The position numbers were made by a program, and so were the translations under genes. Positions 3,414 to 41,448 of a stretch of 46,629 nucleotides of DNA are shown here, piece by piece (the first letter of the stretch is position 1; every line of letters begins with the position of its first letter). The DNA is from Clostridia bacterium (lineage in GTDB: Bacteria > Bacillota > Clostridia > Christensenellales > CAG-1252). The stretch is from assembly GCA_017455605.1 (NCBI GenBank), contig JAFSZO010000042.1, positions 1 to 46,629 of the forward strand. Reading direction: 5' to 3'. Below the pieces are notes generated by a model that was not told the origin of the DNA, did no database searches, and worked only from the letters and a program-made list of their open reading frames with translations.

Positions 3414-3465
3414 AGACCCAAAAACACGAGCGCGGAGGGTTACTAAGAAACATTATCAACAAAAG

Positions 3466-3586
3466 ACAGCGGAGAGTGGTGCGAAGACAAACGCTCATCA
3501 AAAAGGCGAGCAGGAGCGTACTTGATCGTACGTGACTACTCGCCTTTGCAGATGTAGTGAAGTATTCGTGCCGCTATACGCTGTCG
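3466..3586 (-). repeat. R1 intergenic element, copy B (inverted relative to copy A)
   Basis: ACAGCGGAGAGTGGTGCGAAGACAAACGCTC...AAAGGCGAG...GCGTACTTGATCGTACGTGA..CTCGCCTTT...GTGCCGCTATACGCTGTCG. Ends 1 nt before the glnN stop codon. Confidence 0.85.
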
Positions 3587-3587
3587 T

Positions 3588-5681
<2,094 letters not shown>

Positions 5682-6834: not shown

Positions 6835-7566
6835 ATGAGAAATTGGGAAAAAGAAAAGGAAAAACGCGTCGCCTTTATCCGCGATTTGCTCGCAACTTCG
6901 GGCGCAAAAGGCGTCATTTTCGGCAATAGCGGCGGCAAGGACAGCGCTCTGGTCGCAGCCCTCTGCTCCTTCGCGACGAAGAACGTGCTGGGCGTCATTA
7001 TGCCCTGCCACTCCAAGCGCAACTTCGGCGAGGACAAGGAAGACGGGCTCGCCGTCGCCGCGAAATACGGCGTCGAGACGATGATCGTCGACCTGACGAA
7101 GGTGCGCGCGGACCTCATCGAAGCGGTGGGCACGCCCCTCGAGAGCAAGGGGGCGCTGTCCAACATCGCGCCTCGCCTGCGTATGACCACCCTCTACGCG
7201 ATAGGAGCCGAGCGCGGCTACCTCGTGGCCGGTACGGGCAACAAGAGCGAGCGCTATATGGGCTACTTCACGAAATGGGGGGACGGCGCGTGCGACTTCA
7301 ACCCCATCGCAGACCTCGGCGCGACCGAAGTCTTCGACTTCCTGCGCTATCTCGGCGCGCCCGACCACGTCGTGACCAAGGCACCCTCAGCTGGACTCTT
7401 CGAGGGACAAACGGACGAGACGGAGATGGGCGTGACCTACGCCGAGATCGACGCTTATCTGCGCGGCGAACCCGTGTCGAACGAGGCGAAAGCGATCATC
7501 GAACGCTACCACCGCGCGGCGGGGCACAAGATGGTCCTCCCCCCCGTGTATCACGACGACGTATAA
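6835..7566 (+). CDS. nadE: NH3-dependent NAD+ synthetase
   Basis: PP-loop GNSGGKDSALVAAL, plus GTGNKSERYMGYFTKWGDGACDFNPI. ATG 6835 lies 8 nt after GAGGAT. An alternative ATG is at 6817. Confidence 0.9.
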   Translation: MRNWEKEKEKRVAFIRDLLATSGAKGVIFGNSGGKDSALVAALCSFATKNVLGVIMPCHSKRNFGEDKEDGLAVAAKYGVETMIVDLTKVRADLIEAVGTPLESKGALSNIAPRLRMTTLYAIGAERGYLVAGTGNKSERYMGYFTKWGDGACDFNPIADLGATEVFDFLRYLGAPDHVVTKAPSAGLFEGQTDETEMGVTYAEIDAYLRGEPVSNEAKAIIERYHRAAGHKMVLPPVYHDDV

Positions 7567-7676
7567 CGGCGCAGATGCTTCGCTACCGCGTCGCTCGGAG
7601 GTAGTTACGTACAAGGAGTACGCGCCTGCCACACTCGCTCGCGGAGCGCTCGTCTCTGCACCGTTCTCCGTCGTCG
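7555..7676 (+). repeat. R1 intergenic element, copy C
   Basis: GACGACGTATAACGGCGCAGATGCTTCGCTA...GTTACGTACAAGGAGTACGCGCC...GAGCGCTCGTCTCTGCACCGTTCTCCGTCGTCG. The nadE stop codon (7564-7566) lies inside the element. Confidence 0.8.
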
Positions 7677-7814: not shown

Positions 7815-7890
7815 CACGCCATCAAGCTTGGAGCGGAAAAAAAATAAAAAAATGCGAACGTGGAGAGGAGTGTAGCGGCGAGTAACTCCG
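7815..7890 (+). repeat. ~52-nt direct repeat (copy 1) fused to a truncated R1 head
   Basis: CACGCCATCAAGCTTGGAGCGGAAAAAAAATAAAAAAATGCGAACGTGGAGAG, then GAGTGTAGCGGCGAG, a degenerate form of the R1 GGAGAGTGGTGCAGAGGCGAG head. Repeated at 8039. Confidence 0.75.
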
Positions 7891-8038: not shown

Positions 8039-8092
8039 CACGCCATCAAGCTTGGAGCGGAAAAAAATATAAAAATTTGCGAACGTGGAGAG
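8039..8092 (+). repeat. ~52-nt direct repeat (copy 2), running into R1 copy D
   Basis: CACGCCATCAAGCTTGGAGCGGAAAAAAATATAAAAATTTGCGAACGTGGAGAG, near-identical to 7815-7867. Confidence 0.8.
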
Positions 8093-8206
8093 TGGTGCAG
8101 AGACAAGCGCTCTCCGAGGAGGCGGGTCTGAGCGTACTCCGTGTACGTGATGCCCGACGACGCAGGAAGTTAGCGCAGTATATGTGCCGCTATACACGTT
8201 CGCCGG
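8084..8206 (-). repeat. R1 intergenic element, copy D (inverted relative to copy C)
   Basis: CGTGGAGAGTGGTGCAGAGACAAGCGCTC...GCGTACTCCGTGTACGTGA...GTGCCGCTATACACGTTCGCCGG. Ends 6 nt before the trmL ATG and supplies its GGAG SD. Confidence 0.85.
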
Positions 8207-8212
8207 AGTAAT

Positions 8213-8713
8213 ATGTTTAACGTAGTACTGTTGCAACCCGAAATCCCCCAAAACACAGGCAACATCGCCCGCACCTGCGCGGCGACGAACTCCGTTCTGC
8301 ACCTCGTGGAGCCGCTCGGCTTCGACATCGACGAGAAAGCCGTCAAGCGCGCGGGACTGGACTATTGGGACAAACTGACGATCAAAGTTTACGAGAATTT
8401 GGCGGATTTTTACGAGCAAAACAAACAAAACGTCGAGAACGGCGCGACGATGTGGTACGCCTCCACCAAGGCAAAGATCGTCTACTCCGACGCGCGTTAC
8501 AAGGACGGAGATTACCTCATCTTCGGCAGGGAGACCAAGGGGATCGACGAGGAGGTCCTCGCGGCGAACTACGACCGAACGGTCCGCATCCCGATGTGGG
8601 GCGAGATCCGCTCGCTGAACCTCTCCAACAGCGTCGCGATCGTGCTGTACGAAGCGCTGCGCCAAAACGGGTTCGACCGCTTCACACTGACGGGAAAACT
8701 GAGGACGAAATGA
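8213..8713 (+). CDS. trmL: tRNA (cytidine/uridine-2'-O-)-methyltransferase, SpoU/TrmL type
   Basis: MFNVVLLQPEIPQNTGNIARTCAA...LIFGRETKGI...RIPMWGEIRSLNLSNSVAIVLYEALRQ is the TrmL signature. Confidence 0.9.
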   Translation: MFNVVLLQPEIPQNTGNIARTCAATNSVLHLVEPLGFDIDEKAVKRAGLDYWDKLTIKVYENLADFYEQNKQNVENGATMWYASTKAKIVYSDARYKDGDYLIFGRETKGIDEEVLAANYDRTVRIPMWGEIRSLNLSNSVAIVLYEALRQNGFDRFTLTGKLRTK

Positions 8714-8732
8714 GGCGAGGCGAGCCCCTCTC

Positions 8733-8764
8733 AATTAGGAATTAGGAATGAGGAATTAGGAATT
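8733..8764 (+). repeat. Heptamer microsatellite (AATTAGG)n, outer cap of the left inverted repeat
   Basis: AATTAGG AATTAGG AATGAGG AATTAGG AATT. The reverse complement (AATTCCT)n occurs at 14373-14397. Confidence 0.9.
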
Positions 8765-9035
8765 GCGGACGCCGAATGCGTTCCGCAATGTCGAGCGATA
8801 GCGAGATACATCATGCTTGCGTAGCAAGTACATCATGTCGCCGAAGGCGTGCTGCCGATGCCGCACAGGCGGAGGCAATGTCGAGCGTAGCGAGATACAT
8901 CATGTTTGCGGAGCAAATACATCATGTCGCCGCAGGCGATACAAAAAAGTGAAGTTGCTTCGCAGTGAAGTACGGCTGACGCCGTGTGAAGCCTATCGCA
9001 GTGAAGTTTGTACCGGATGGTACAAGTTGAGGGTC
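8765..9035 (+). repeat. Left arm of large inverted repeat (IR-L), a linker-hairpin array
   Basis: Internal tandem units at 8787-8849 and 8877-8938, built as (AATGTCGAGCG.TAGCGAGATACATCATG-hairpin-TACATCATG-hairpin). Then four GTGAAGT words alternate with hairpins. 8892-9035 is near-identical to the reverse complement of 13982-14125. Confidence 0.9.
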
Positions 9036-9104
9036 ACTCCGTTCCGGATGCTCCGCGTCGCAGCAAACATTTTTCTCTAAAAGCAAGTTTTTTCTTTTTA
9101 CCTG

Positions 9105-9133
9105 TTGAAATGCCCTCGCGCGTGTGGTATAAT
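9105..9133 (+). promoter_or_regulatory. SigA-type promoter of fdx (extended -10)
   Basis: TTGAAA (9105-9110), 17 nt, TGG-TATAAT (9125-9133). Confidence 0.7.
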
Positions 9134-9179
9134 CGTATACGAGCGTAAAGCTATATTTTATGAAAAGGAGAACAAAACT

Positions 9180-9350
9180 ATGCCCAGATTTATCAGTGAC
9201 GAATGTGTGATGTGCGGCGCTTGCAGCGCTACATGCCCGGTGGAAGCCATCAAGGAAGGAGACGGAAAGTACGTCGTAGACAAAGAGACCTGCATCGATT
9301 GCGGTGCTTGCGAAGCGGGTTGCCCCGTCAGCGCGATCTCGGAAGAATAA
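9180..9350 (+). CDS. fdx: 2x[4Fe-4S] clostridial-type ferredoxin
   Basis: 56 aa with CVMCGACSATCP and CIDCGACEAGCP clusters. ATG 9180 lies 8 nt after AAAGGAG. The upstream TTG 9105 sits inside the promoter. Confidence 0.9.
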   Translation: MPRFISDECVMCGACSATCPVEAIKEGDGKYVVDKETCIDCGACEAGCPVSAISEE

Positions 9351-13329: not shown

Positions 13330-13981
13330 CCTCCAAATCGCTCAAGCGATCCTCCTTGAAACACAGACCAAAAATGCAAAAGCGATCAGTCCTTTCTCTT
13401 TCATTATTCAGACGATCGTCACCATACGTATCGAAACACCGAAAAGGTGCAGATGCTTGAAGGCATGCTCCCGGCGCTTAGTTTTCATTAACTATTCTTC
13501 ATAGAAAAGTAGCAACGATACACCCCAAGAAATCTTCGACTTATCGGGGACCCCGTGAAGGCGGGGGGTTGCGATCGCTCGGAGCAGGCTCCTCACGCGC
13601 TTTGGCTAAAAACGCCGCACTCGGGGTCCCTGAATAATATGTATTATTCGGGGTGGTCTTGCCGTTTTCTTAACGCGTCGCGCCCCCAAACCCCTAAACG
13701 CTTTTAATCGGATTATTTGCGAGCTAAGCTCGCATTTTAAATCAAATAGACGTAAAACATACACTATTTTTGAAAGGATAGATCGCTCGTAAACGAGCGA
13801 ATGATTTACAAAGGCTATTACAACACAACAGAAACTGCATAGTAAAGGATAGCGAGGAGCGTGGCTCCGCGGGTCAAAAGCTATGAGAGGGAAATTGTGA
13901 GGTGCGTTCTTAAGAAAAACAAGAAGTCCTCGTCGAGCGTTCTTTTTTCGGAGCATCAGCGCCACATTATGCGCGATGTGC
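13330..13981. repeat. Non-coding, hairpin-dense spacer (short stem-loops separated by recurring words)
   Basis: Examples: ATCGC-TCAA-GCGAT, CACC-GAAAA-GGTG, GCGAGC-TAA-GCTCGC, CGCTCG-TAAA-CGAGCG, GGAGC-GTG-GCTCC. The word AAGGATAG recurs before two of the hairpins. No credible ORF. Confidence 0.6.
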
Positions 13982-14372
13982 GACCCGCAACTTGTGCCTT
14001 TTGGCACAAACTTCACTACGCAGTAACTTCACACGGCGGTAGCCGTACTTCACTGCGAAGCAACTTCACTTTTTTGTATCGCCTTCGGCGACATGATGTA
14101 TTTGCTGCGCAAACATGATGTATCTCTCCCTGCGCGGCATTGTCCCTCGCTGTTGCCGCGGCTCTGTCGAGTCGCTATCGCAACGTTTCTCGGGACTGCC
14201 TTGCCTCGCTCGAAAACTGATGTTTTCTTCGCGCTTTGTCGTAGCGTTCATAGGCTCGTTCGCGATGCACTTGCGCGCTACGTTTGCAAGTGCTATTCGC
14301 TCCGCAGCCCATTTCCGCTACGATAATAGGATGAAGTTGGGAAAAGTATTTTTGGAGCCGAAGGCGACCCTT
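13982..14372 (-). repeat. Right arm of large inverted repeat (IR-R)
   Basis: 13982-14125 is the reverse complement of 8892-9035 and carries the same CATGATGTAT and ACTTCAC words. The inner ~245 nt is only partly related to IR-L. Confidence 0.9.
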
Positions 14373-14397
14373 AATTCCTAATTCCTAATTCCTAATT
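14373..14397 (-). repeat. Heptamer microsatellite (AATTCCT)n, outer cap of the right inverted repeat
   Basis: AATTCCT AATTCCT AATTCCT AATT, the reverse complement of the run at 8733-8764. Confidence 0.9.
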
Positions 14398-14494
14398 GAA
14401 AAGACGCCTCTTGGCGTCCGTATTTCCGCATTCTGCATTAGCGCGCGGTTCGCATTTATCATTGGAATGGCAAAAACAGCTCGCCGATAGCCTC

Positions 14495-24496: not shown

Positions 24497-26782
24497 ATGG
24501 ATTTCGAGATTTTCGACGGCGCAATGGGTACGATACTCCAAGCTCGGGGACTCCCCGCGGGCGCCTTCCCCGAGACCTACAACCTGACCCACCCGGACGT
24601 CGTCCTCGCGGTGCATAAAGCCTACGTCGCGGCAGGCGCTGACGTCGTGACCGCGAACACCTTCGGCGCAAACCCCTTCAAGATGAAGGGCATGGACGTA
24701 AAGAAGATCATTGCCGAAGGCGTGCGGATCGCCAAGGCGTCCGGCGCAAAGAAAGTCGCCCTCGATGTCAGTTCACACGGCGCCCTTCTCGAGCCGAACG
24801 GCTCTCTTTCTTTCGACGAAGCATACGATAATTACGCTTTCATTATGCGCGCTGGCGCAGAGGCGGGCGCGGATCTCGTGCTGATCGAGACGATGAGCGA
24901 CCTGCTCGAGGCGAAATGCGCCCTGCTCGCCGCAAAGGAGAACACCGAGCTCCCGGTCTACGTCACGATGACCTACACCGAGGACGGCAGGACCTTCCTC
25001 GGGACCGACCCCGTTACGGCGACCATCACGCTCTGTTCGCTCGGCGCGGACGCGGTGGGCGTGAACTGCTCGCTCGGCGCGCGCGACCTCTTGCCCGTCG
25101 TCAAAAAGATAACGGAATACGCCACCTGCCCCGTGATCGTGCAACCCAACGCGGGGTTGCCGCGCATCGAGGGAAACCGAACGGTCTACGACGACACGCC
25201 CGCGACCTTCGCCGCCGCGATGGGCGAGATGGCGGACCTCGGCGTGACCATCCTCGGCGGGTGTTGCGGCACCGACCCCGAATACATCCGCGCGCTCAAG
25301 GGACTCCTTAGGGACAAAACGCCCGTAAAGCGCAACGTAAAACGGCATACCGCCGCCACCTCGGCGACCAAGACCGTCTTTCTGGACGAGGGCGTAAAGG
25401 TCATCGGTGAGAGGCTGAACCCGACGGGAAAAAAGAAGCTCAAAGCCGCCCTGATCGAAGGGGACGTGGACTACCTGCTACACGAAGCGATCGACCAAGA
25501 ACGCGCAGGCGCGGACATCCTCGACCTCAACGTCGGACTGCCCGAGATCGACGAAGCGGCGACCCTCGTCAAGGTGATGAAAGAGGTCTCCTCGACCGTC
25601 GCCCTGCCCATCCAGCTCGACTCCTCGGATAAACGCGCACTGGAGCGCGCCTGCCGCCTCTACTGCGGCAAACCCATCATCAACTCGGTGAATATGAAGA
25701 AAGAGAGCCTCGACGCGATCGTGCCCATCGCGAAAAAGTACGGCGCGACCCTGATCGGACTCTGCCTCGGCGACACGATGCCCAAGACCCACGAAGAGCG
25801 TTTCGCCTACGCGACCGCCCTCGTGGAGGAACTGACCGCGCGCGACATCCACAAGAGTGACGTCGTGATCGACTGCCTGGTGCTGACCATCGCGACGGAT
25901 GAGACGCAGGCGGAGGAGACCGCCCTCGCCGTGAAACAGGTCACCGAAGAGCTCGGCGTCTGCACGGTGCTCGGCGTCAGCAATATCAGCTTCGGGATGC
26001 CCGACAGGCTGAAGATCAACGCCGCTTTTCTCTCCAAGTGTCTGCAAGCGGGACTCTCCGCCCCTATCCTGAACCCCCTCGTCGCGGAATATGCCGAGGT
26101 GCTCGGGGGCAAACTGCTGACCCTCGACACCTCCTCCTACTTCACCTTCGACGGGAGCGGCGCGGAAGGCATCCGCGGTATGGTCCTCTGCGGCGCGGTG
26201 GGCGGCATCGAAGAGGCGGTGCGCGAGGCGCTGAAGACCAAAAGTCCCCTCGACGTCATCAACGGCGAATTCATCCCCGCGCTCGACGAGATCGGCGCAA
26301 AGTTCGAGAAAGGCGAAGTCTTTCTGCCCCGCCTGATCGCCGCCGCGGAGGTGGTGAAAAAGGGTATGGACGTGATGCGCGCGGGCGCGGACGAGGACGA
26401 CAGCCGTCCCGACGTGATCCTCGCCACGGTCAAGGGCGACATCCACGACATCGGCAAGAACATCGTCAAAATGTTGCTCCGCAGTTACGGCTACAAGGTC
26501 TTGGACCTCGGCAAGGACGTGCCCGAGAGCGAGGTCGTCGCCGCGTGGGAGAGGACGCACGCCCCCCTGATCGGGCTCTCCGCCCTGATGACCACCACCG
26601 TTCCCTCTATGAAGACCACGATCGACGCCCTGCGTGCGGCAGGATCGACGGCGAAGGTCGCGGTCGGCGGCGCGGTACTGACCGAAAACTACGCGCGAAC
26701 CGTCGGCGCGGACTACTACGGCAAGGACGCAAGGGCGACGGTGAAGATCGCCGAGGCGATCATACGCAAAGACAGCGTATAA
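24497..26782 (+). CDS. metH: Cobalamin-dependent methionine synthase lacking the activation domain
   Basis: Hcy-binding domain (GAMGT, GGCCGT), pterin-binding domain (INSVN), and B12 motif GDIHDIGKNIV...LSALMTTT. ATG 24497 follows AAGAGGT. The ORF-track start at 24080 is rejected. Confidence 0.9.
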   Translation: MDFEIFDGAMGTILQARGLPAGAFPETYNLTHPDVVLAVHKAYVAAGADVVTANTFGANPFKMKGMDVKKIIAEGVRIAKASGAKKVALDVSSHGALLEPNGSLSFDEAYDNYAFIMRAGAEAGADLVLIETMSDLLEAKCALLAAKENTELPVYVTMTYTEDGRTFLGTDPVTATITLCSLGADAVGVNCSLGARDLLPVVKKITEYATCPVIVQPNAGLPRIEGNRTVYDDTPATFAAAMGEMADLGVTILGGCCGTDPEYIRALKGLLRDKTPVKRNVKRHTAATSATKTVFLDEGVKVIGERLNPTGKKKLKAALIEGDVDYLLHEAIDQERAGADILDLNVGLPEIDEAATLVKVMKEVSSTVALPIQLDSSDKRALERACRLYCGKPIINSVNMKKESLDAIVPIAKKYGATLIGLCLGDTMPKTHEERFAYATALVEELTARDIHKSDVVIDCLVLTIATDETQAEETALAVKQVTEELGVCTVLGVSNISFGMPDRLKINAAFLSKCLQAGLSAPILNPLVAEYAEVLGGKLLTLDTSSYFTFDGSGAEGIRGMVLCGAVGGIEEAVREALKTKSPLDVINGEFIPALDEIGAKFEKGEVFLPRLIAAAEVVKKGMDVMRAGADEDDSRPDVILATVKGDIHDIGKNIVKMLLRSYGYKVLDLGKDVPESEVVAAWERTHAPLIGLSALMTTTVPSMKTTIDALRAAGSTAKVAVGGAVLTENYARTVGADYYGKDARATVKIAEAIIRKDSV

Positions 26783-26785
26783 AAA

Positions 26786-26905
26786 GACGGCGTATAGCGG
26801 CGCGAATCCTGCTCTACGACTTCAGTGGCGGGTAGTTACGTACAGTAAGTACGCGCCTATCCGCCACTTCGTTGAGCGTTTGTCTTCACACCACTCTCCG
26901 CCGCC
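26786..26905 (+). repeat. R1 intergenic element, copy E (solo)
   Basis: GACGGCGTATAGCGGCGCGAATCC...AGTGGCGG-GTAGTTACGTACAGTAAGTACGCGCCTAT-CCGCCACT...GAGCGTTTGTCTTCACACCACTCTCCGCCGCC. Starts 4 nt after the metH stop. Confidence 0.85.
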
Positions 26906-26937
26906 TTAACCGAGGCTTTAATCAAAGAATTTGTTAT

Positions 26938-29222: not shown

Positions 29223-29330
29223 TTATCATCGCCGCGAACTTTAGTATATCATCAAGGTGCTTACGCCTTGCCTATCGTCAAAGGCGAGACCGCCTTTGTA
29301 TATCATCACGGCTACGGCGTGTATCATTGT
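29223..29330 (-). repeat. Linker-hairpin array (GTATATCATC word family)
   Basis: TTATCATC, TAGTATATCATC, TTGTATATCATC and GTGTATCATTG alternate with short hairpins such as AAGGCG-AGA-CCGCCTT. The word is the reverse complement of the GATGATATAC words at 44336-44372. Confidence 0.7.
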
Positions 29331-29375: not shown

Positions 29376-29416
29376 GTCCGTCTGTGAGCCGAAGCTGCCG
29401 CGCAAAGGGAGAGTCC

Positions 29417-30538
29417 TTACGGCTTGCGCTTTTTCTTCTTGGGATCCTGCTCCCCGTCGCCATTCGAGTCGCCGTTCGAGTCGTCCGCCGCCGCGTCCTC
29501 TGCGTCGAGCATTGCGGCGAGGTCGTTGTCCTCGGCGATGGCGGAAAAGTCATCGTCGAAATCACCGTCGAAGTCGCCGTCGTAGTCGTCGGCTTCCTCG
29601 CGATCGTCGTCCTCCTCTTCCGTTTCGGCATCCTTTTCCTCGTCGTCCTCATCGGCATTGTTTTGCGCCCGTATCCGTTCAAAGCGCTCCCACAGACGCT
29701 GACGCGCCGCTTTGAGTTCCTCGGCGGAACTTCCTTCGGACGGTTCTTCCGACTCCTCGTCTTCGTCATCCTCCTCGGCTCTCTCCCAAAAACGATCTCC
29801 GTCGAATTCGTCTTCCTCGTCTTCGTCCTCGGCATCAAGGTCGACGTCCTCGTCAAACTCAAACGGAAAGTCGTCGTCGGGGTCTTCTTGCGGCCCCTTA
29901 AAGTGCGCGTTTTCCCCTCCGTTCGTCCCTTTGAGTATTCTCTCGATGAGGTTATCGTCTGCCTCGGGTGCGCTCGGCGCGTCCTCTTCCTCCTTGCGGA
30001 GTCTGTCGACGAATTCCTCCGGAGTCAAGAACCCCTTGGTGTAGGAGCGAGATTGCCGGTCGACGGGTCCGGTCTCGGTCCTGCCGAGCACCGCCAGACA
30101 CTCCCGAGGCGAGAGTATGCACCGCCCGTCGGACGACAGGATCCCGAGGTTGCAGCATTTGTCCCGCAACGTATGAGCCTGTATGTACCCGATCCGAAGC
30201 AGGATCTGAAACTTGGAGATCCCGAAGGTCATATCGGGCGACCGAGAGAAACGGTCGATCATACTCGCGAGCCGCGGGTCTTCCGCCGCCGCCTCGGCGA
30301 TACGACGAAGGCGCTCCGTCATCACGACGGGCGCATTTTCGCGGGCTTGAGCCGACGCGGCGCCCTCGTTGATGCGGAAAGTCATCCCACCCACGTAGGT
30401 GACGACGCCTTTTTTGACCAATTCTTCCACCCCGGCCCTGACCGTCTTGTACGGCAAGGAAAGAGCCATCTGCAGTTCGGGAACGGTGATCTCTTTTCGC
30501 TCCGAGATTACGGAGAGGATCTGATCGCTCGCTTTCAT
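29417..30538 (-). CDS. Double winged-helix protein (second module FtsK-gamma-like) with a ~190-aa poly-acidic tail ending in a basic patch
   Basis: wHTH1 ITVPELQMALSLPYKTVRAGVEELVKKGVV. wHTH2 ISKFQILLRIGYIQAHTLRDKCCNLGIL resembles the FtsK gamma S.LQR.L.IGYNRAARL...G pattern. Tail: EDEDEEDEFDGD...DYDGDFDGDFDDDF...KKKKRKP. TAAATG junction with the upstream gene. Confidence 0.75.
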   Translation of the reverse strand: MKASDQILSVISERKEITVPELQMALSLPYKTVRAGVEELVKKGVVTYVGGMTFRINEGAASAQARENAPVVMTERLRRIAEAAAEDPRLASMIDRFSRSPDMTFGISKFQILLRIGYIQAHTLRDKCCNLGILSSDGRCILSPRECLAVLGRTETGPVDRQSRSYTKGFLTPEEFVDRLRKEEEDAPSAPEADDNLIERILKGTNGGENAHFKGPQEDPDDDFPFEFDEDVDLDAEDEDEEDEFDGDRFWERAEEDDEDEESEEPSEGSSAEELKAARQRLWERFERIRAQNNADEDDEEKDAETEEEDDDREEADDYDGDFDGDFDDDFSAIAEDNDLAAMLDAEDAAADDSNGDSNGDGEQDPKKKKRKP

Positions 30539-32209
30539 TTAATACACCTTCCTCAGTCTTTTCACGGTATAGAGATACTTGTCTGCGTAGGGATCGATAT
30601 TGCAGATATAGTCGCGCTCGTCCGCCTTGGGCAGAGAGTTCATCTCCTCGCAAAGGAAATACCGCTCCATTCTCGACGAGAGCACCGGTTTGTTGACCTC
30701 CCTGACGACGCATTCTCCCGCCGTGAGGAGCGCGAGACGGCTCCTCGTCACGAGGGGAATGGTCTCGGGCTGACGGGTGCGGATGTGCTCGTCCTCGCCG
30801 TTCAGGGCGCCCATCGGCGCGATGCGAGTGTGCGAGAGGCATTCGTTGGAGAACTCCGTCAAGGTGGAGTAGTCGTTCGAGCCGAAGAACACCTTCACGT
30901 TGAGGTTATCCCTCACGATCTTCGCCACTTTTCCTTCGTAGACGTTGTCCAGCTGCGCGTAGCTCTGCATCACGAGGATGAACCAGATGTTCCTGCCCGC
31001 GCAGGCGGAGATCACCGTGTCGAAGTCCTTGATGGCGGGGAAGTTGCCGAATTCGTCCAAGACGAAGTACCAGGGTACCTCGAGACGGTGATTCGGCAGC
31101 GTATTCGCCACCCCGATCAGGAAGGTGTAGAGCGACTGGATAAAGAGCTGGATCGTGTGATAGCTCAGCCTCAGCTCGTCACGGAAGTCGATGAAGATGG
31201 CGACCGGCTTGCCGCCGATCAGATCGGAAAACTCGAAGGAATTGCACGACGTGATCGTGCGGGTCGTCACCTCGCGGAAGGGCGCGAGCTTGGTGACGAG
31301 CGAGGTGTAGTAGCCGGCGCGGGTGTTCCGCGGCGTGGAGATCAGGATGTCGCGCGCCAGGATCAGCGCCTTGGAGTCATCCTTCCTGCCGGTAAAGAAG
31401 CCGTGGTCCTTCACCTCGTCGCTGCCTACGACGATGGAGTCCACGATCTTGATCAGCGTATTCATCGAGAAGTTGTCTTCGGTGATCGGATTGTCGTGGC
31501 GGTCGATGTCTTCGAGCATCCCGTAGATGAATGCCTCCAACAGCTGTCTGGCGCCGTCCTCCCAGCTGGGGTCCTTCACGGACAACGAGGGACAGACCAT
31601 CAGCGCGTAGGAGGAGATCATCTTTTCCACCTCGCCCATGCGGCGCGAACGGACCTCGTTCACCGCGCGATCCAGCTTGCCGAGGTCGGTGTAGACCCTG
31701 CCGAGGAATTCGTTTTTCACCCGTCCGTTGCTCTCGACGAGAACGACCTCGTCGAGGGTATCGCGGGCGCGGAGATAGGCGCGATAGATCTCGGTGAATT
31801 GGTTCCAGTACTCGCTGTGATCCTGATCGCGGAAATTGAGCAGTTTCACGTCGTAGCCCTCCTGCACCAAGGTCGCGGCGCACGCCTGATAGATCTCGCC
31901 TTTGGGGTCGCAGATCACCATGTTGCGCTTGATCTTTTGCAGCGCGTTGGAGAGCACGGTCGGGATGATGTAAGAGGTAGTCTTGCCCTGACGGGTCGCG
32001 GCGACCACGCCGACGTGGTTGTCCTGCTCCGAAAAGAACAGCTTGAGCCTGCCGTTCACACGGAAGCAACCCTTCAACACGCCGGGCATATACCTCGTGT
32101 GCAGTTCGTCCCAATAGACGCTCTGCGGATGATCCTCGGGCAGCTCGTCATAGCGCAGGAGCTGCATATTCTCGTATTCCGATAGGACTTTGTTCTCAAT
32201 TCTCATCAT
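30539..32209 (-). CDS. Soluble VirD4/TraG/TraD-type (type IV coupling protein-like) P-loop NTPase
   Basis: Walker A VVAATRQGKTTSYIIP, CDPKGE, Walker B WYFVLDEFGNFPAI, and RNIWFILVMQSYAQLDNVYG. No N-terminal TM helices. ATG 32209 lies 8 nt after GGAGGTGG. Confidence 0.8.
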   Translation of the reverse strand: MMRIENKVLSEYENMQLLRYDELPEDHPQSVYWDELHTRYMPGVLKGCFRVNGRLKLFFSEQDNHVGVVAATRQGKTTSYIIPTVLSNALQKIKRNMVICDPKGEIYQACAATLVQEGYDVKLLNFRDQDHSEYWNQFTEIYRAYLRARDTLDEVVLVESNGRVKNEFLGRVYTDLGKLDRAVNEVRSRRMGEVEKMISSYALMVCPSLSVKDPSWEDGARQLLEAFIYGMLEDIDRHDNPITEDNFSMNTLIKIVDSIVVGSDEVKDHGFFTGRKDDSKALILARDILISTPRNTRAGYYTSLVTKLAPFREVTTRTITSCNSFEFSDLIGGKPVAIFIDFRDELRLSYHTIQLFIQSLYTFLIGVANTLPNHRLEVPWYFVLDEFGNFPAIKDFDTVISACAGRNIWFILVMQSYAQLDNVYEGKVAKIVRDNLNVKVFFGSNDYSTLTEFSNECLSHTRIAPMGALNGEDEHIRTRQPETIPLVTRSRLALLTAGECVVREVNKPVLSSRMERYFLCEEMNSLPKADERDYICNIDPYADKYLYTVKRLRKVY

Positions 32210-33809
32210 AGTTACCACCTCCGAAACCGAACGTTTTCGTGCGCATACCTTTCATTTTCTCGCGCACCGCCGCAGCGGTGACGACCGTTTCCTTCCTCTT
32301 TGCGCGATAGGAACGAAGCGTTTTGTCGATGACTGCCTCCGCCACGTCGATGGGCAAGGTGGCGAGCAAGGTCGCCGCCTCCTCTTCGACGGACAGCTGA
32401 TCCAGCCCGAACGCCTTCTTGCGCTCGTCGAAGATCGCCCGGATCATCCGCGCGGTCTTTTGCTTGCCGAAGGGCGGCAGTTCCACGATCTCGCCATCCT
32501 CCGTGAGCTTCCGAGCGTTTTCACGATCGCAAATGCAGATCGGCAGCACCCCGGACAGGTCGATCGAGAGGCTCGGCGATTCGAGGTTGAAGTCCGCGCG
32601 CTTTTCCCCGCTGAGGAAATCGACTACTTCGTCGAAGGCATACTCCTCGATCTTGCCGTCGAGTACGAGCAAGATCACGTTGTTTTTGTCGCGGCTGAGA
32701 TCGCGCAGGAAAACGTTGTTTTTGGTGCGGACGAGGTCCCTCGACTTCAGCGCCTTGACGTCCACCGTGATGACCTTCGCATCCGCAAAGAGGTCACGCA
32801 GGAGCGAGACAGCCATATCCGAGGCGTAGTCCGAATCGCTCGAGAGTACGAGCGGAAGATACAGGGACTTGTCCCTGAGATCCGCGTTCATCAAGTTGGT
32901 CGTGAGCGGCTCGCGGATCTCGGAGAGATCTAAGGGAGCGCGATCGAGCGCCCGTTCGTCGAAGGGCAAGGTGCCGAATCGGAGTCCGAGCGGCAAGTCG
33001 CAGACCTCGGCGATCAAGGCGGGATTGCCCGCGTAAACGACCTTCTTTTTGTCCTCAAGGGAGATCGCGCGGCTGAAGACCACCCGACCGACGCTCGCGT
33101 CGTAGAGCAACGGATTGACCTTGCCGTGCGCGAGAGCGGTCTTCACCACGAGGACCTCGGGCGAGGGAGCCGAGAGGGAGACGCCGTAGCGCGCCGCCGC
33201 CTTTTTCGCCAGTTCCTCGTAGGGCGCGTGACTGAGGACGGCGGCGAGGATCCTCGCGTTCTCCGCCTTGTGCGCCTCGTCGTAATAGAGGAGCGCGAGC
33301 GCGCTCGTCAGATCGTTCCAACGGGCGGCTTTGGTCAGGTCTTCGAGACCCTTCTCCTTGCCTGCGCCGTAGCCGCTCACCCCTTCGCATTCGAGGATGC
33401 CGACGGTGCGGAGCGCGATGACGTTGCCGCGAAACGCCTGTTCGGTCAGCGCGAGAGCGATCTGCCCGTCGGTGGCGTCCGCCGCAATGTGCAGCTCGTA
33501 TTTCGCGACTGCCTTGAAGGCTTCGCCTTTGATCGTGACGAGGTCCTCGCTCTCCTTGTCTAAGAGCGAGGGATGTCCCTGCATCGCCTCGTACTCCTTG
33601 ATGCGCTTGTAGCGAGCATACTCCTCCAAGCTCAGGATCTCGGAGACGATCTCCTTGCGGGTGTCGGCGTAAAGGCGTCCGGTTTCTTCCGCGTCGATGC
33701 AGAAAAGATCTGCCAAGAGACAAAAGAACCTCTTGTCCTCAAAGGACCCGCCGAGGATCTCTTTGAGCGAGAAATATTCTCTGTAAAACAGTTCGTTAGT
33801 GATGTTCAT
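32196..33809 (-). CDS. Hypothetical protein: Sel1/TPR-like repeats plus a degenerate (P-loop-less) AAA+-like C-terminal half
   Basis: AFRGNVIALRTVGILECEGV...LTKAARWNDLTSALALLYYDEA is Sel1-like. The C-terminal half follows a CbbX/SpoVK-like order (LPLVLSS.., NVILLVLDG, VLPICICD, ELPPFGKQKTARMIRAIF) without a GxxxxGK[ST] P-loop. AGGAGG SD. Confidence 0.65.
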   Translation of the reverse strand: MNITNELFYREYFSLKEILGGSFEDKRFFCLLADLFCIDAEETGRLYADTRKEIVSEILSLEEYARYKRIKEYEAMQGHPSLLDKESEDLVTIKGEAFKAVAKYELHIAADATDGQIALALTEQAFRGNVIALRTVGILECEGVSGYGAGKEKGLEDLTKAARWNDLTSALALLYYDEAHKAENARILAAVLSHAPYEELAKKAAARYGVSLSAPSPEVLVVKTALAHGKVNPLLYDASVGRVVFSRAISLEDKKKVVYAGNPALIAEVCDLPLGLRFGTLPFDERALDRAPLDLSEIREPLTTNLMNADLRDKSLYLPLVLSSDSDYASDMAVSLLRDLFADAKVITVDVKALKSRDLVRTKNNVFLRDLSRDKNNVILLVLDGKIEEYAFDEVVDFLSGEKRADFNLESPSLSIDLSGVLPICICDRENARKLTEDGEIVELPPFGKQKTARMIRAIFDERKKAFGLDQLSVEEEAATLLATLPIDVAEAVIDKTLRSYRAKRKETVVTAAAVREKMKGMRTKTFGFGGGNYDEN

Positions 33810-33921
33810 ACCCGTTACCTCCTTTCGCCTTGTTTTCGGCTTTGATTACGACTCGGATGGAAGACGTTGTCCTGAGTGCGTTTGGGTGATCGTTCCGCTG
33901 AAAAACGTCGAATGTATCCAT
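33796..33921 (-). CDS. 41-aa leader ORF overlapping the start of the 537-aa gene
   Basis: MDTFDVFQRNDHPNALRTTSSIRVVIKAENKAKGGNGYEHH. AGGAGG lies 8 nt before the ATG at 33921. 14-nt overlap with the next gene. Too short for the ORF track. Confidence 0.4.
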   Translation of the reverse strand: MDTFDVFQRNDHPNALRTTSSIRVVIKAENKAKGGNGYEHH

Positions 33922-34134
33922 TTTCTTTTCCTCCTTCCGATCCTGTGATCGTGCGTAGTTGATTGGTGCGCCCCGTGAAGGGCTACCGGTGGTCCCGCCC
34001 TTACCTCTCCCTACGGAGGGGGAGTGGTTCGACCCGTTCGGGCGCGAAAATATACCCCCCTACGGGCGTTACCCTGCGAATATTCATAACCTGTTTTGGG
34101 GTCGGCGACGCTCAAGCGAGCGCGCCTCGGCGCC

Positions 34135-34686
34135 TTAAAGCTTGATGATGCTCGTCATCGGATTCACGAGATACAGTTCGTCCAAGCGGAAGAAGCTACC
34201 TTGCAAGCTCGCGTAGATCTCACCCGTCTCGCCCTGCACCGCGTAGATGATCTGTCCCACGACAAGCATCAGTCCGAGGAAGATCGCGAAAGCGAGCACC
34301 ATTCCGAGAGTCTTGTTGATCGCCTTCATCACGACGTTGTCCGCTTCCATCACGCTTTCGAGGATCTTCACGATGATCTTCCTCACGATCTGAACGATTC
34401 CGAAGAGAACGATAGCAAGCACGATGACGTCGATGCGGATCGTCAAGAGGAACTTGACGAACCCCGCGTCCGACGCTGCGAGCTTCTCTTTGAACAGATC
34501 GAGCAGGTTTTGAACGAACCCGAGGCTCAGAACGAATCCGAAGATCAGATAGCAGACCAAGACCGAGATCAAGATACCGCGAATGCCACTCGTCAACCAG
34601 CCCAAGAATTTGCCGAAGCCGACGGTCAGTCCCAAGATGCCGAAGATGATAGCCGCGCCGATAAAGATGTAATCAGCCAAAATCAT
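34135..34686 (-). CDS. cvpA: CvpA-family membrane protein
   Basis: MILADYIFIGAAIIFGILGLTVGFGKFL... with four hydrophobic helices, typical of colicin V production protein family topology. AGGAGGA SD before ATG 34686. Confidence 0.75.
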   Translation of the reverse strand: MILADYIFIGAAIIFGILGLTVGFGKFLGWLTSGIRGILISVLVCYLIFGFVLSLGFVQNLLDLFKEKLAASDAGFVKFLLTIRIDVIVLAIVLFGIVQIVRKIIVKILESVMEADNVVMKAINKTLGMVLAFAIFLGLMLVVGQIIYAVQGETGEIYASLQGSFFRLDELYLVNPMTSIIKL

Positions 34687-35634
34687 AGTTTTTTCCTCCT
34701 TTTTCGCGAAACGCCTTTGGTTTCGCTTTCCGCACGGGTAGGCGCTTCGCCTTGATTGCGTGCGGCGTGTCCTCGCGCCCCGTTGAGAGCGCATCTCGCA
34801 CCGACAATAACGCGCAGGTCGAGATCGAGGAGTATCAGTGGTGGGTCATGGGATCGTTCCTTTCAAAACGCGCGGTGGAAAGCGCCGAAGGTCGATCTCC
34901 CGGATCGGGATCAAACGAACGACGCCGACCGATGCGAGTCGTCCGTGGAAATGCGACGCGCCGCCGCTCTTCGCGACGGTATCGCCGACGGATAACGGGG
35001 GTACCCCCGAGGATCTTATTTAATGAGTGCCTCTTGCTCCGAAACGGAACGAGCTATCACGATTTGCACGTCGCCACGCAACGCGGAAGGGGCGAAACGA
35101 TCGGCTCTGTCGGCAGACGAAAAAGACTCGGTCGCCGCGTTTTTCATTCCCATCGAACGGGGGGCAACAAAAACAGATGCCATACGATCACACTCCTTCG
35201 ACAGAAGCGCACACGTTTGCCGAAATCGGCGGCGCAGAAACCTCTGTCCAAATTTCTTTATACCATTATACCGAAAAGAAGATATTGATGTCAATAGGGG
35301 TAAAACGCCTTTCGGAAGGGTATCGTGAAAAAAACGTCATATGCTCGAGAAAATATCCCTATATTTCCGTATTTTTTCTACAGAGCTCCGATGATTTCGT
35401 CAAAAATCGTCGTGCCTGTGTAATAACGAAGCAAATCGGTTGTAAACTTTATATTTCAATCAAGCGCCCTGCTCGGCTTCTATATATTACATACATACGT
35501 AGAGTACAAACTAGTTATTAATATATAATAACGTACGTTCAAAAAGCTCTTCCTATCTTTTACACGGGCGCGGATCGGCGGGACGCCCTCCTCTCTCCCG
35601 CCGCAAGTGAGAGACGAGCCGTAACGCGGCGCGG

Positions 35635-37524
35635 CTATTCCCCGATCGGCGCGTCGCCGTCAACGCAATGCACGGTCGCTGCGGGGACGTCCTTGGTCAT
35701 ATTGGCTCCTTTCTTGACGGCGCGCCACTCGTCGGCGGTGCCCGTAAAGGTGATGTCCGTCAGACTTCCACACCACAGGAACGCCGCCTCCCCGATGCGC
35801 TTCACCGAGGACGGGATCGTGATCGAGGTCAGACTATTACACCAAGAAAAGGCGGCTCGCCCGATACTCTTCACGGAAGGGGGGATCTCGATGGCAGTCA
35901 GGTTCTTACACTCGGAAAAGGCAGCGTTCCCGATGCTCGTCAATCCCTCGGGGAGCTCGACGCTCGTCAGACTCGTGCAATCCTTAAAGGCGTTGATCCC
36001 GATACTCTCCACCGAAGCGGGAAGCGTGATCGAGGCAAGATTCTTACACGACAGGAACGCAGACGCCCCGATGCTCGTCACGCCGTCCGCGATCGCGACG
36101 GAGACCAGGTCGGCGCGACCCTGAAACGAGCTCTCCCCAATACTCGTCACGGGAGTCTTCGCGATGAGGGCGGGGATCGTCACGTCGACGTCCTTCCCCT
36201 TATAGCCCCCGATCTCGTAGCCGTTCTCCGTCTTTCTCAGCGTGAACACCTTTTTCCAATCCGCCAAGGCGTACTCCCGCACGCCCAGCGCCTTGTCCTG
36301 CCGACTCTGCGCGTAGGCGTCGAGTTTCTTTCGGCTGAACCTCTTCTGCTTGTACTCCAAGAGCGCCGCCGTGATCCCTACCTTACCCGCGGCGGCGGCG
36401 ATCGCTCCGTCCAATTCGTCTATGCCGAACGAAATCCCGATAGGCTCCTCCGTCATTCGCGCAAAAGCAGCCGCGTCGTCATCCTCTGTGATCAGCGAGA
36501 GGAAAGCCTCCTTCTTCCTTTTCAAATACGAGAGGTGATCGGGATAGAGCGGGCTCGCCCCATCCGACAACCAAACGTAGACCGTGGTCGTCTTCGCCTC
36601 TGTATCTTTACATTTACCAAACGCCCAATGCGGCACGACCGGACAATTGAGAAACGACGTGCTCGTGGCACTCTTCGGCATCGGCATCTCGATGCGTCTC
36701 AGAGCCGCGCACCTCGAGAACACGGATCTGCCCAAGAGCTCCAACTCGCCTTTAACGACGACCCGCTCCAACGCCTTGCACCCCGCGAACGCCTCCTCCG
36801 ATACCTCCGTCACGGAGGCGGGGATCTCGACCGAGGTCAAACTCGCGCAATTGTAAAACGCCCTGTACTCGATGCTCGTCACACCGAGAGGCATCTCGAC
36901 GGCGGTCAAACCGACGCACCCCGCAAAAGCCTCCCTTCGAATGCTCTCCACGCCGCTCGGGAGGGAGATCGAGGTCAAGCTCGCGCAATCGCGAAACGTC
37001 CAACGATCAATGCTCGCCAAGCTCTCGGGCAAGGTGATCGCGGACAGATTCGTGCAGCCGTCAAATACGTTGTCGCTGAGGAGCGTCACACCGCTCGGTA
37101 ACGCGATCGAGGGCAAGCTCGTACAGTCTCTGAACGCATCCGACTCAATGCGGGACAACGAACTGTCCTCGGGAAACGTGACGGAGGTCAAGGCGCTGCA
37201 CTCGCAGAACGCATATTGTCCGATGCTCGTCATGCCCTTCCCGATCACGACGGCAGTCAACCCGACGCAACCGCTGAACGCGCAGACGTCAACGCGCGTA
37301 ACGGAGTCGGGGATCTCCACCGCGCGCAGCCGTTCACAACCGCTGAACGCCCATCCCCCGATAAACGTCAAACTCTCGGGGAGGGCGACCGAGAGCAGGC
37401 GCTTTTGCTTTTGAAACACCTTCTCTTCGATGCGCGTCACGCCCTCGGGGACGACCACGTCTCCGCCCTTGCCGACGTACTTGGTCAGCACGCCGTTTTC
37501 TATGATGAAATCTTGTTTTGCCAT
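35635..37524 (-). CDS. BspA-type leucine-rich repeat (LRR_5) protein, 629 aa, no signal peptide
   Basis: Repeats of the form IP.SVT.IG..AF..C..LTSV.LP. Architecture is LRR block, ~170-aa helical linker, LRR block. The N-terminus MAKQDFIIENGVLTKY is not hydrophobic. Confidence 0.85.
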   Translation of the reverse strand: MAKQDFIIENGVLTKYVGKGGDVVVPEGVTRIEEKVFQKQKRLLSVALPESLTFIGGWAFSGCERLRAVEIPDSVTRVDVCAFSGCVGLTAVVIGKGMTSIGQYAFCECSALTSVTFPEDSSLSRIESDAFRDCTSLPSIALPSGVTLLSDNVFDGCTNLSAITLPESLASIDRWTFRDCASLTSISLPSGVESIRREAFAGCVGLTAVEMPLGVTSIEYRAFYNCASLTSVEIPASVTEVSEEAFAGCKALERVVVKGELELLGRSVFSRCAALRRIEMPMPKSATSTSFLNCPVVPHWAFGKCKDTEAKTTTVYVWLSDGASPLYPDHLSYLKRKKEAFLSLITEDDDAAAFARMTEEPIGISFGIDELDGAIAAAAGKVGITAALLEYKQKRFSRKKLDAYAQSRQDKALGVREYALADWKKVFTLRKTENGYEIGGYKGKDVDVTIPALIAKTPVTSIGESSFQGRADLVSVAIADGVTSIGASAFLSCKNLASITLPASVESIGINAFKDCTSLTSVELPEGLTSIGNAAFSECKNLTAIEIPPSVKSIGRAAFSWCNSLTSITIPSSVKRIGEAAFLWCGSLTDITFTGTADEWRAVKKGANMTKDVPAATVHCVDGDAPIGE

Positions 37525-37570
37525 AAGTTTCCTTTTTCTGTTTTTTATCTATCTCCGCGTGTGGCGAAGG

Positions 37571-40500: not shown

Positions 40501-40651
40501 AGGACGGCAACGTGACCGAGGTCAAGGTGTCGCACATGGAAAAGGCGGACTCCCCGATCGAGAGGATGCCGTCCGGGATCACGACCGCCCCGCCTTTGCC
40601 TCGATAGCCCGTCAGTACGCCGTTTTCAACGATAAAGTCTTCCTTCTCCAT
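37571..40651 (-). CDS. BspA-type leucine-rich repeat (LRR_5) protein, ~1026 aa, no signal peptide
   Basis: Same repeat type. The LRR-linker module occurs twice, then a final LRR block. ATG 40651 (MEKEDFIVENGVLTGY) lies 8 nt after GGAAGG. Confidence 0.85.
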   Translation of the reverse strand: MEKEDFIVENGVLTGYRGKGGAVVIPDGILSIGESAFSMCDTLTSVTLPSSVRCVERYAFARCKHLASVTIPSGVTRISEGAFCECKALTAIAIPPSVTSIGKQAFFSCDRIASLTFAEDGRLTTFGQGAFAFCKSLTSVTLPPSLTRLADDSFSRCDALTSVTIREGVTVIGNQAFAYCRALLSVTIPASVTEIGESAFEGCRSLNAVTVKGRLDLLGERAFSRCYVLHRIDMTAPTKVEGYPFLRCPVVPSWEFPRCKNQPIKEESVYRWLSQSDRVLYPEYLAYLKRKKARFLSLIAENDNVAAFAAMTEPPIGIRFGIGELDTALDAVGGRAALSAALLDYKRRTYSQVMLDAYALKQEEAIFGGRPLSPAEWRKLFELKKKGSEYEIVRYIGDAAELRIPAKIGKYPVTSIGDRAFIRCRQLTAVTIPFEVTRIGASAFSGCCALTEVEISAGVTDIGEEAFSYCEELTSLTVAEGNPRYHSENNCLIETETKTLVVGCRASVIPEGVTSIGDSAFCGCATLTSIEIPASVTSIGDCAFYKCTGLTELEVPHGVTRIGGSAFGCCTALTALFVPSSVTELGRGIIDQCSSLSYTEHEDGVYLGDAENPYLIFVKAKQSCITQCRINERTRFIYDSAFWHCLDLTEMIIPPSVRSIGNFAFHLCENLRSVTIPHGVRRIELATFRQCKRLSEITLPASVTEVGENAFDGCYSLETVVIEGKLDKLGTAAFMDCKGLRRVKMPRPVRMGVNPFLRCPVVPAWMIALYGNQLVQDASVTLRLADAERPIEQEYLAYLNKNKRRFLSRIVEEEDVALFAALTDPSVGIKYSISELDTAIDAAAGKAVITAALLSYKNKTYSRRRIDAYDKDLQDKALGVREYTAADWREVFRLRKEASRYVITRYDGRDTVLYVPAAIGNTPVTRIGPKAFEDCHTLTAVAIPEGVTDIGGYAFLRCGSLSAITLPSTLRRLGQNVFFLCGALSSVTFAGTIAEWTAIDKWANWAADLPVTKVNCSDGDVPPSIM

Positions 40652-40697
40652 ATCTTTTCCTTCCGATGGCACCCCGCCGCACGCGGCAGAGGGGCAT

Positions 40698-40796
40698 TCA
40701 CTTGATCGGCGCGTCGCCGCCCGTGCAACGCACCACCGTGGTGAGGACGTACTTGGTGAGCACGCCGCCTTTTATGACAAAACCACCGTTTGCCAT
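40698..40796 (-). pseudogene. Collapsed LRR paralog: N-terminal 17 codons fused to C-terminal ~15 codons
   Basis: MANGGFVIKGGVLTKYV|LTTVVRCTGGDAPIK*. Compare MAKQDFIIENGVLTKYV... and ...AATVHCVDGDAPIGE* of the 629-aa paralog. Confidence 0.65.
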
Positions 40797-40800
40797 ATTC

Positions 40801-41340: not shown

Positions 41341-41448
41341 ATTCCCCCTCCTATGATAGCAGTATACCTCTTTTTCAAAACGCCGCCAAGCAATTACTTA
41401 GAAATTCTTTAGAAATTTATTTCCGATCTCCCCGTCCATCGCGGGGTC

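Follow-up and report, generated by a model that had tools for sequence, protein, structure and literature searches.

Word-hairpin arrays in a Clostridia contig: a candidate mosaic family of intergenic repeats with a module related to the orphan Rfam motif Gut-1

What kind of element alternates short fixed words with hairpins whose sequence differs from unit to unit? The question is raised by the spacer between a gene for a trmL-like SpoU-type tRNA methyltransferase and a ferredoxin gene (fdx) in a 46,629-nucleotide stretch of DNA from a Clostridia bacterium (contig JAFSZO010000042.1, assembly GCA_017455605.1), which was analyzed in its entirety and is here termed the window. An earlier note, made from the letters of this DNA alone, had described positions 8765-9035 as conserved words alternating with short variable hairpins and had proposed a dispersed family of structured elements. 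Our analysis upholds this description, and on balance we lean towards the view that the arrays belong to a mosaic, multi-copy family of non-coding intergenic DNA repeats akin to the REP (repetitive extragenic palindromic), BIME (bacterial interspersed mosaic element) and BOX elements, which needs hairpins formed in single strands and is not an independently transcribed small RNA (sRNA) gene.

The basic unit of ~16-25 nt consists of a fixed A/T-rich word of 7-10 nt followed by a G+C-rich perfect hairpin with a stem of 4-7 bp and a loop of 3-4 nt, and the repeat period of 22-25 nt varies between copies. The composite copy in the trmL-fdx spacer (copy 1, Table 1) starts ~20 nt past the stop codon of trmL, no other terminator being found in the interval, and its word-hairpin alternation spans 8807-9025. 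It comprises four TACATCATG words (A-type; starting at 8807, 8829, 8896 and 8918) and then three exact GTGAAGT words (B-type; 8949, 8965 and 9001) along with a GTGAAGC as the third unit (8986), each with short intervening hairpins. Those following the four A-type words are, in order, CTTGC-GTA-GCAAG, (T)CGCC-GAA-GGCG, TTTGC-GGA-GCAAA and TCGCC-GCA-GGCGA, and a 27-nt spacer splits the two A-type arrays, after which the leader aatgtcgagcgatagcgaga recurs. The earlier reading of GTGAAGT as occurring four times with hairpins between is correct for the three exact words; it fails at 8986 and at two spacers, namely TGCTTCGCA, with a stem of just 3 bp, and CTATCGCA, one of the three inter-word spacers, which is no hairpin.

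All array words are more frequent in the window than in its shuffled versions: TACATCATG, allowing one mismatch, has 12 occurrences where 3.3 are expected, and GTGAAGT has 13 where 3.8 are. Of the 23 intervening segments of the window, 15 have a perfect, end-anchored stem of 4 bp or more, where shuffles gave a mean of 0.5 and a maximum of 4 in 2000 trials, and across 20 sources perfect hairpins are present in 76 of 106 unique units as against 2.4 in shuffles. A natural control is offered by other phyla in which the same two words co-occur by chance; there the stems are, with few exceptions, of 0-3 bp. Both controls exclude chance, the comparison with shuffles being the one on which the earlier note had staked its reading. 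An alignment (A1) of 24 different 13-nt units following TACATCATG (one of them following TACATAATG) shows pairing in 97.5% of the stem cells and two-sided changes at all five pairs, with 39 double-sided changes and a single one-sided change (a G-U, 1 of 120 cells). This covariation supports the proposal that the family is conserved as structure while its sequence varies. G-T pairs account for 5 of the 514 scored pairs in the set of unique units, 113 of 136 unique units close their loop with a C-G pair, 87 of these 136 have a loop of three nucleotides (triloop), and the A-type hairpins cluster round the consensus TCGCC-GNA-GGCGA. C-G-closed G-N-A triloops are classic hyper-stable DNA mini-hairpins, and the closing-pair bias together with the triloops points to real single-strand folding rather than to a double-stranded protein-binding site. 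Iterons and other sites of the latter kind were considered and rejected, as they leave the C-G bias and the palindromic spacers unexplained; likewise, the word cannot be the loop between neighboring half-stems, as adjacent half-stems are not complementary.

The folding energy of the whole region is only modestly better than that of shuffles (z = -3.0 as DNA, -1.9 as RNA), which is what might be expected if there were no distinct feature here at all, i.e. if the arrays were chance palindromes, a coding repeat, a decayed insertion sequence or a degenerate CRISPR. However, these scores are weak and of no diagnostic value, and imply that the signal is one of local regularity rather than of a global fold, and given the shuffled and natural controls we regard this explanation as having next to no chance of being right. 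The period is variable and not a multiple of 3, which together with the variable unit length rules out both a coding tandem repeat and coding mini-open reading frames (ORFs) starting from the ATG of the word, and Pfam gives no credible match for any ORF lying over an array. No transposase, those of the HUH, RAYT and IS200 types included, was recovered with Pfam among the 30 ORFs of the window and 30 array-flanking genes from 17 related loci, and searches of plasmid and phage collections with blastn also gave no relevant match. CRISPR arrays are similar in that direct repeats alternate with variable segments, but their repeats are 24-40 nt long as against words of 7-10 nt, and their spacers are unique and non-palindromic while the "spacers" here are 9-18-nt palindromes around TCGCC-GNA-GGCGA. 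No CRISPR family of Rfam scored above threshold and no cas domain was present among the scanned ORFs, in agreement with the earlier view that the grammar is unlike CRISPR.

Four array loci, in both orientations, were found in the window, and the related arrays previously noted at 14090-14125, 29223-29330 and 44321-44475 are all present, the latter two sites using GTATATCATC/GATGATATAC and TACATCATG words. The inverted composite copy 2 in the rmuC-HK spacer extends, with its arrays, extra module and heptamers, over 13982-14400 and immediately follows a terminator-like hairpin that lies on the same strand. Its hairpin TTGTGCC-AAAA-GGCACAA (13992-14009) bears out the compensated change relative to copy 1 that had been pointed out earlier, and a second compensated stem change is seen in its TTTGC-GCA-GCAAA as compared with CTTGC-GTA-GCAAG of copy 1.

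The gene order GS-asnA-nadE-trmL-fdx-tilS-cca-rmuC-HK is kept in relatives (related genome or metagenome loci compared with the window are given as L-numbers). The trmL-fdx spacer, 466 bp in the window, measures 256 bp in L259, which has a 98% identical TrmL and near-identical flanks, and 113-160 bp in L260-L267 (84-91%), where the site is without the element. L259 has the same AATTAGG heptamers followed by a different module, without a word-hairpin array; there the heptamers mark the switch point of module content. Similarly, the rmuC-HK spacer is of 1204 bp in the window and of 55 bp in L261, and the spacer between tRNA-Arg and a helix-turn-helix (HTH) gene holds arrays in the window and none in the syntenic L271. 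At all three sites compared, then, the arrays are either insertions specific to a lineage or cassettes that can be exchanged. That the two inverted composites are the ends of one 5-kb mobile unit, as their earlier designation IR-L and IR-R suggests, was considered and rejected: in relatives without the repeats the intervening housekeeping genes are syntenic and contiguous, and the composites are two copies of a dispersed repeat on either side of these genes.

The same grammar, with differing words, was recovered in at least 8 genome loci and 11 metagenome loci. Matches with hairpin spacers cluster in metagenome-assembled genomes (MAGs) labelled Christensenella sp. (UBA3217, UBA3798, UBA3770), Christensenellaceae, Christensenellales and uncultured Clostridia, placing the repeat family, as judged from these matches, in a Clostridia lineage whose related MAGs bear the labels Christensenella or Christensenellales. 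A two-word pattern scan of species-representative genomes gave mostly chance matches (~120 expected by estimate), most with stems of 0-3 bp, and a three-word metagenome scan gave mostly ordinary minisatellites with identical non-palindromic spacers, its 11 real loci being those just mentioned; among 29 matches in the IMG/VR viral scan none had hairpin spacers. The words across the related loci include TACATCATG, TACATAATG, GACATTATG, GTGAAGT, TCGATAT, GCGATAT, AGTGATATT, GATGATAT and GATGAAATAC, accompanied by perfect 4-7 bp hairpins that differ per unit, with three or more word families present together in a single genome.

The organization of these loci is that of a mosaic. Copy 1 and three tandem copies in L009 have a common layout of heptamers, hairpin, leader, TACATCATG array, TACAAAAA, second array and gggtcactccgttcc, in which the second array uses GTGAAGT in the window and TCGATAT in L009. 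Elsewhere the module order varies (L028 has a B array, heptamers and an A array), extra modules are inserted in copy 2 and L068, and whole composites are tandemly repeated in L009 and L161. The heptamer variants AATTCGG and GAATGAG adjoin arrays in L009, L144 and L161; tandem heptamers of one or other kind (AATTAGG, AATTCGG, GAATGAG) always accompany the arrays, at 8733-8764 and 14372-14397 in the window and in L009, L068, L144 and L161. A gene of the metallo-beta-lactamase fold adjoins a TACATCATG array in three MAGs or contigs (L028 1210-2508, L216 25-1347, L030 925-2079). In L028 and L216 the array begins ~20 nt past the end of this gene and has 2 and at least 5 units respectively; this array may be old, syntenically retained, and subject to the expansion and contraction that the earlier note had proposed to look for. 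Most close TrmL homologues (85-98% identity) lie on contigs of 0.6-3 kb, consistent with the repeats breaking short-read assemblies of this lineage; no record matches the TrmL of the window exactly.

A relaxed-threshold Rfam scan of the window and the related loci recovered a single family beyond noise, namely Gut-1 (RF01706), at 8914-8997 (+) with 25.9 bits and at 14021-14104 (-) with 32.2 bits. Both fall below its gathering score of 50 bits, so that membership by score does not follow, although the architecture of three word-flanked hairpins is shared, apart from the non-hairpin spacer CTATCGCA of copy 1. L068 passes this cut-off at 3786-3870 (51.8 bits), with 26-29 bits being obtained for L028, L216 and a second site in L068. 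The Gut-1 consensus reads CAaUGAAAU-hairpin-GUGAAAU-hairpin-GUGAAAU-hairpin-GUGAAAU, and the window word GTGAAGT matches its word (GUGAAAU/GUGAUAU) at 6 of 7 positions in an alignment spanning model positions 1-77, i.e. the full model. The spacer between mgtE and a Y-family polymerase gene in L068 holds both a TACATCATG array and the Gut-1 array that passes the cut-off, and the Gut-1 seed sequences also contain inverted AAUAUCAC-hairpin arrays; an AAUUUUC heptamer tandem lies close to 2 of the 5 seed sequences examined. Judged by these alignments, the GTGAAGT-type module is a diverged relative of Gut-1, and the grammar is already known as this orphan motif. What is new are the TACATCATG and GTATATCATC word families, which do not occur in the Gut-1 seed file and whose arrays lie outside its model, the mosaic with heptamer tandems, the likely host lineage and the strain-level presence and absence. 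Gut-1 itself was known from human-gut metagenomes through 43 representatives, with no sequenced organism (Weinberg et al. 2010, PMC2864571); we found no literature on it after 2010 and none on intergenic repeats of Christensenella.

Rfam types Gut-1 as Gene; sRNA, and the motif was rated 'Y' as an RNA on its covariation (Weinberg et al. 2010, PMC2864571). The arrays could accordingly be a transcribed non-coding RNA, a multivalent scaffold or sponge in which the hairpins leave the words unpaired and accessible to an RNA-binding protein or to another RNA complementary to them. The RNA scaffold suggested by the earlier note thus gains a precedent that it had missed, and the strong covariation and the C-G-closed, asymmetric loops, suggestive of one strand mattering, agree with it. 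Against a dedicated RNA gene stand the many copies, the empty syntenic sites in relatives and the lack of a sigma-70-like promoter inside or directly upstream of the two composites and of the 44.4-kb array, whose start immediately adjoins the tRNA-Arg terminator; the 29.2-kb array is overlapped by two 9/12 promoter matches, on the word strand. With respect to the gene that turns its 3' end towards the array, the A-type words show no bias of orientation either (8 sense, 7 antisense in our own tabulation), the A and B arrays of one composite have opposite loop polarity, several differing words are used per genome, and the near-lack of G-U is unusual for stems selected as RNA. We therefore consider this explanation rather unlikely, and prefer the DNA repeat family.

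If the units are single-stranded DNA hairpins, an HUH (Y1) transposase, of either the RAYT or the IS200/IS605 type, might move them in the manner of REPINs by reading the hairpin and the adjacent word as guide or cleavage sequence. The layout of a word next to a variable hairpin parallels the GTAG-plus-hairpin organization of REPs, and insertion polymorphism at three sites, strictly Watson-Crick stems and the very stable DNA mini-hairpin type of the C-G-closed, often G-N-A, triloops would all suit such an enzyme. Yet no HUH gene, for which the earlier note had advised looking, was present in the 60 scanned ORFs, and tblastn over 229 kb with IS608 TnpA and Escherichia coli RAYT as queries was also negative, a result of limited weight. 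Moreover, the units are direct tandems, unlike the inverted doublets of REPINs and BIMEs, the known substrates of TnpA and RAYT have bulges or mismatches that these perfect stems lack, and a single genome holds at least three word families. This makes movement by an HUH enzyme distinctly unlikely in our estimate.

The placement of the arrays raises another possibility, that they are cis-acting elements of 3' untranslated regions, co-transcribed with the upstream gene and blocking 3' exonucleases or aiding termination, as E. coli REPs do. They always face at least one gene 3' end: in the 11 spacers where both neighbors could be assigned, 8 are co-directional, 3 convergent and none divergent, and the short distance of ~20 nt from the stop codon in copy 1 recurs beside the metallo-beta-lactamase-fold genes of L028 and L216. 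On the other hand, the same genes lack arrays in relatives, the conserved words and heptamer tandems are left unexplained, and the 44.4-kb copy sits after a strong terminator. We see this as a highly improbable explanation; any such role probably follows from where the arrays lie and is not the reason for the family.

For the mosaic DNA repeat family that we favor, the following mechanism may be envisaged. Units would multiply locally by slippage or unequal exchange between identical words, after which the stems would diverge with both arms changing together; the clustering of the A-type hairpins round a consensus and the differing unit numbers beside the same gene family fit such local duplication. 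Composite blocks of heptamers, A array, B array and other modules would be inserted or exchanged in intergenic DNA facing at least one gene 3' end, and could spread by recombination among copies or by some mobilizing enzyme. The hairpins would form in single strands, either as transient single-stranded DNA hairpins or cruciforms or in read-through RNA, and their Watson-Crick perfection might be kept by selection for folding, by intrastrand template-switch correction of quasi-palindromes, or by both. Template-switch correction is an established mechanism, which we here extend to the arrays.

Several observations weigh against this interpretation. Neither a mobilizing enzyme nor target-site duplications or terminal inverted repeats came to light, the empty-site relatives being too diverged to place junctions. 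The words are identical within an array while the stems differ, which argues for a sequence-specific constraint on the words by some partner. Of 56 unique A-type units 32 have a G/A-N-A loop, a strand asymmetry that neither a purely double-stranded nor a neutral model predicts; C-G-closed hairpins would be stable in RNA too, and there is the rating of Gut-1 as an RNA. Finally, the copy survey of this genome covers the 46.6 kb of the window. A bolder proposal, which we hold to be a real though lesser possibility, is that word-hairpin arrays form a distinct, previously unrecognized class of prokaryotic repeats spread by a dedicated single-strand mechanism, with the Gut-1 "RNA" being merely its most easily modelled module. 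In such a class, a unique tri- or tetraloop hairpin with a C-G closing pair would stand between each two short tandem repeats. The mechanism could be a nuclease or recombinase specific for hairpin plus word, or hairpin-primed templated synthesis. The words may share a core of approximately A-Y-W-T-C-A when the arrays are oriented with the G-N-A loops on the read strand.

Table 1. Positions of the arrays, their modules and neighboring features in the window
Feature	Position	Strand	Basis or remarks
trmL-like SpoU-type tRNA methyltransferase gene	8213-8713	+
trmL-fdx spacer	8714-9179
Tandem heptamers AATTAGG x4.6, left module of copy 1	8733-8764	+	TRF; same heptamers in close relative L259
Imperfect hairpin gcggacgc-cgaat-gcgttccgc, then leader aatgtcgagcgatagcgaga	8765-8806	+	leader again at 8877-8895; homologous leader cgtcgagcgaagcgaga before L009 arrays
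A-type array 1: TACATCATG, CTTGCGTAGCAAG, TACATCATG, TCGCCGAAGGCG	8807-8849	+	sequence reading, word search, hairpin scoring
A-type array 2: TACATCATG, TTTGCGGAGCAAA, TACATCATG, TCGCCGCAGGCGA	8896-8939	+	92% identical to array 1
Linker TACAAAAAA and B-type array: GTGAAGT, TGCTTCGCA, GTGAAGT, ACGGCTGACGCCGT, GTGAAGC, CTATCGCA, GTGAAGT, TTGTACCGGATGGTACAA	8940-9025	+	sub-threshold Gut-1 relative
Right-hand module gttgagggtcactccgttccgg	9026-9047	+	common to L009 copies
Ferredoxin promoter	9105-9133		within trmL-fdx spacer
56-aa ferredoxin gene (fdx)	9180-9350	+
Composite copy 2, inverted: B-type array (GTGAAGT x4) and A-type array (TACATCATG x2)	13982-14126	-	inverted-repeat matches I1 (127 nt, 88%), I6, I7
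Copy 2: extra ~245-nt module, AATTAGG heptamers (14372-14397), terminator-like hairpin (14402-14419)	14127-14419	-	~245-nt module also in L068
C-type array: GTATATCATC-family words between AAGG..CCTT, AAAGGCG-AGAC-CGCCTTT and ACG..CGT	29223-29330	+	word search; hairpin scoring; inverted match I23
Arrays between tRNA-Arg terminator and HTH gene; minus-strand order TTTTGCG..CGCAAAA hairpin, TACATCATG x2, GTATATCATC x2	44318-44475	-	arrays not in syntenic L271
~130-nt dispersed repeat	1779-1907	+
~130-nt dispersed repeat	3458-3588	-
~130-nt dispersed repeat	7545-7670	+
~130-nt dispersed repeat	8087-8212	-
~130-nt dispersed repeat	26776-26907	+
Direct repeat acgccatcaagcttggagcggaaaaaaa.ataaaaa..tgcgaacgtggagag	7820-7880 and 8040-8100		in nadE-trmL spacer
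Putative mobile island	~29400-44200		beside tRNA-Arg
TraG/VirD4-type coupling protein	30539-32218	-	within island
Two large proteins of 69-nt LRR (leucine-rich repeat)-like repeats	35635-40672	-	within island
XRE-type HTH gene	43168-44160	-	within island

The 1.2-kb rmuC-HK spacer holds further recurrent non-coding modules at 13330-13980 and 14127-14371 (cggggaccccg-type hairpins and cattgtccctcg...gcgttcataggctcg), which recur beside arrays in Christensenella MAG loci (L068 3520-3700; L041 6600-6640), implying that the mosaic has more module types than those analyzed here. A second dispersed repeat family of ~130 nt, with the pattern ..CGTATAncGGCGC..GGnAGTTACGTAC-N6-GTACGCGCCTGCC..GAGCGCTCG..CACCACTCTCCGCCGCC, has five copies in the window, four of which start at or just past a gene stop codon; the remaining copy, which is reversed, lies directly against the start codon of trmL. 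L259 and L266 have a related module, with GGAGAGT heptamers. The nadE-trmL spacer, with the direct repeat listed in Table 1, is of 646 bp in the window and of 111 bp in the relative L261. The region at ~29400-44200 resembles an integrated mobile island and is bracketed by inverted GTATATCATC-type arrays (I23); homologues of its HTH gene on other contigs adjoin serine recombinase, rve transposase or NACHT genes.

The placement of the Gut-1 grammar, hostless since 2010, in Christensenella- and Christensenellales-labelled MAGs connects it to a gut lineage of medical interest, and if Gut-1 is a module of a mosaic repeat the focus shifts from sRNA targets to mobility, single-stranded DNA hairpins and genome plasticity. 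It is likely that metagenome assemblies of this lineage break at the repeats, which could also serve as strain markers. Should a dedicated enzyme make or move the units, it would represent a new hairpin-directed DNA activity.

Among known systems, the behavior of the arrays is closer to that of REP/BIME clusters than the "only loosely resembles" of the earlier note allowed. Like REPs, BIMEs and REPINs they consist of palindromes that are scattered outside genes and flanked by a short conserved sequence, form mosaic clusters with other motifs near gene 3' ends, vary between strains and show compensated changes; the placement is the same as that of REP elements, here never in divergent spacers. 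They differ in that REPs are imperfect palindromes with a 5' tetranucleotide, arranged as alternating inverted copies, whereas the hairpins here are much shorter (13-18 nt), mostly perfect, and set in direct tandems with identical 7-10-nt words. REPIN-RAYT systems have a RAYT gene, typically with the repeats on either side, of which the 60 ORFs and 229 kb searched here gave none, and their host is proteobacterial as opposed to firmicute. With regard to miniature inverted-repeat transposable elements (MITEs), no terminal inverted repeats are evident at the composite ends, and in the comparison of filled with empty sites the relatives with empty ones are too diverged to place junctions. The BOX elements of Streptococcus pneumoniae are likewise modular (boxA, a variable number of boxB, boxC), intergenic and multi-copy with predicted stable folds, but their modules are 45-59 nt long and conserved in sequence, while here the stems vary per unit and only the 7-10-nt words are fixed. 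The heptamers here resemble the STRR heptamer tandems of cyanobacteria, which reportedly occur with hairpin-forming small dispersed repeats (SDR) of ~21-27 nt that lie in conserved contexts and are present or absent between relatives; phylum and sequences differ, and we know of no description of a strict word-hairpin-word periodicity for them. The word-hairpin grammar of Gut-1 is identical; Gut-1 was described as an sRNA gene without known host, whereas its relative here is one module of a strain-variable mosaic repeat in Christensenella- and Christensenellales-labelled MAGs.

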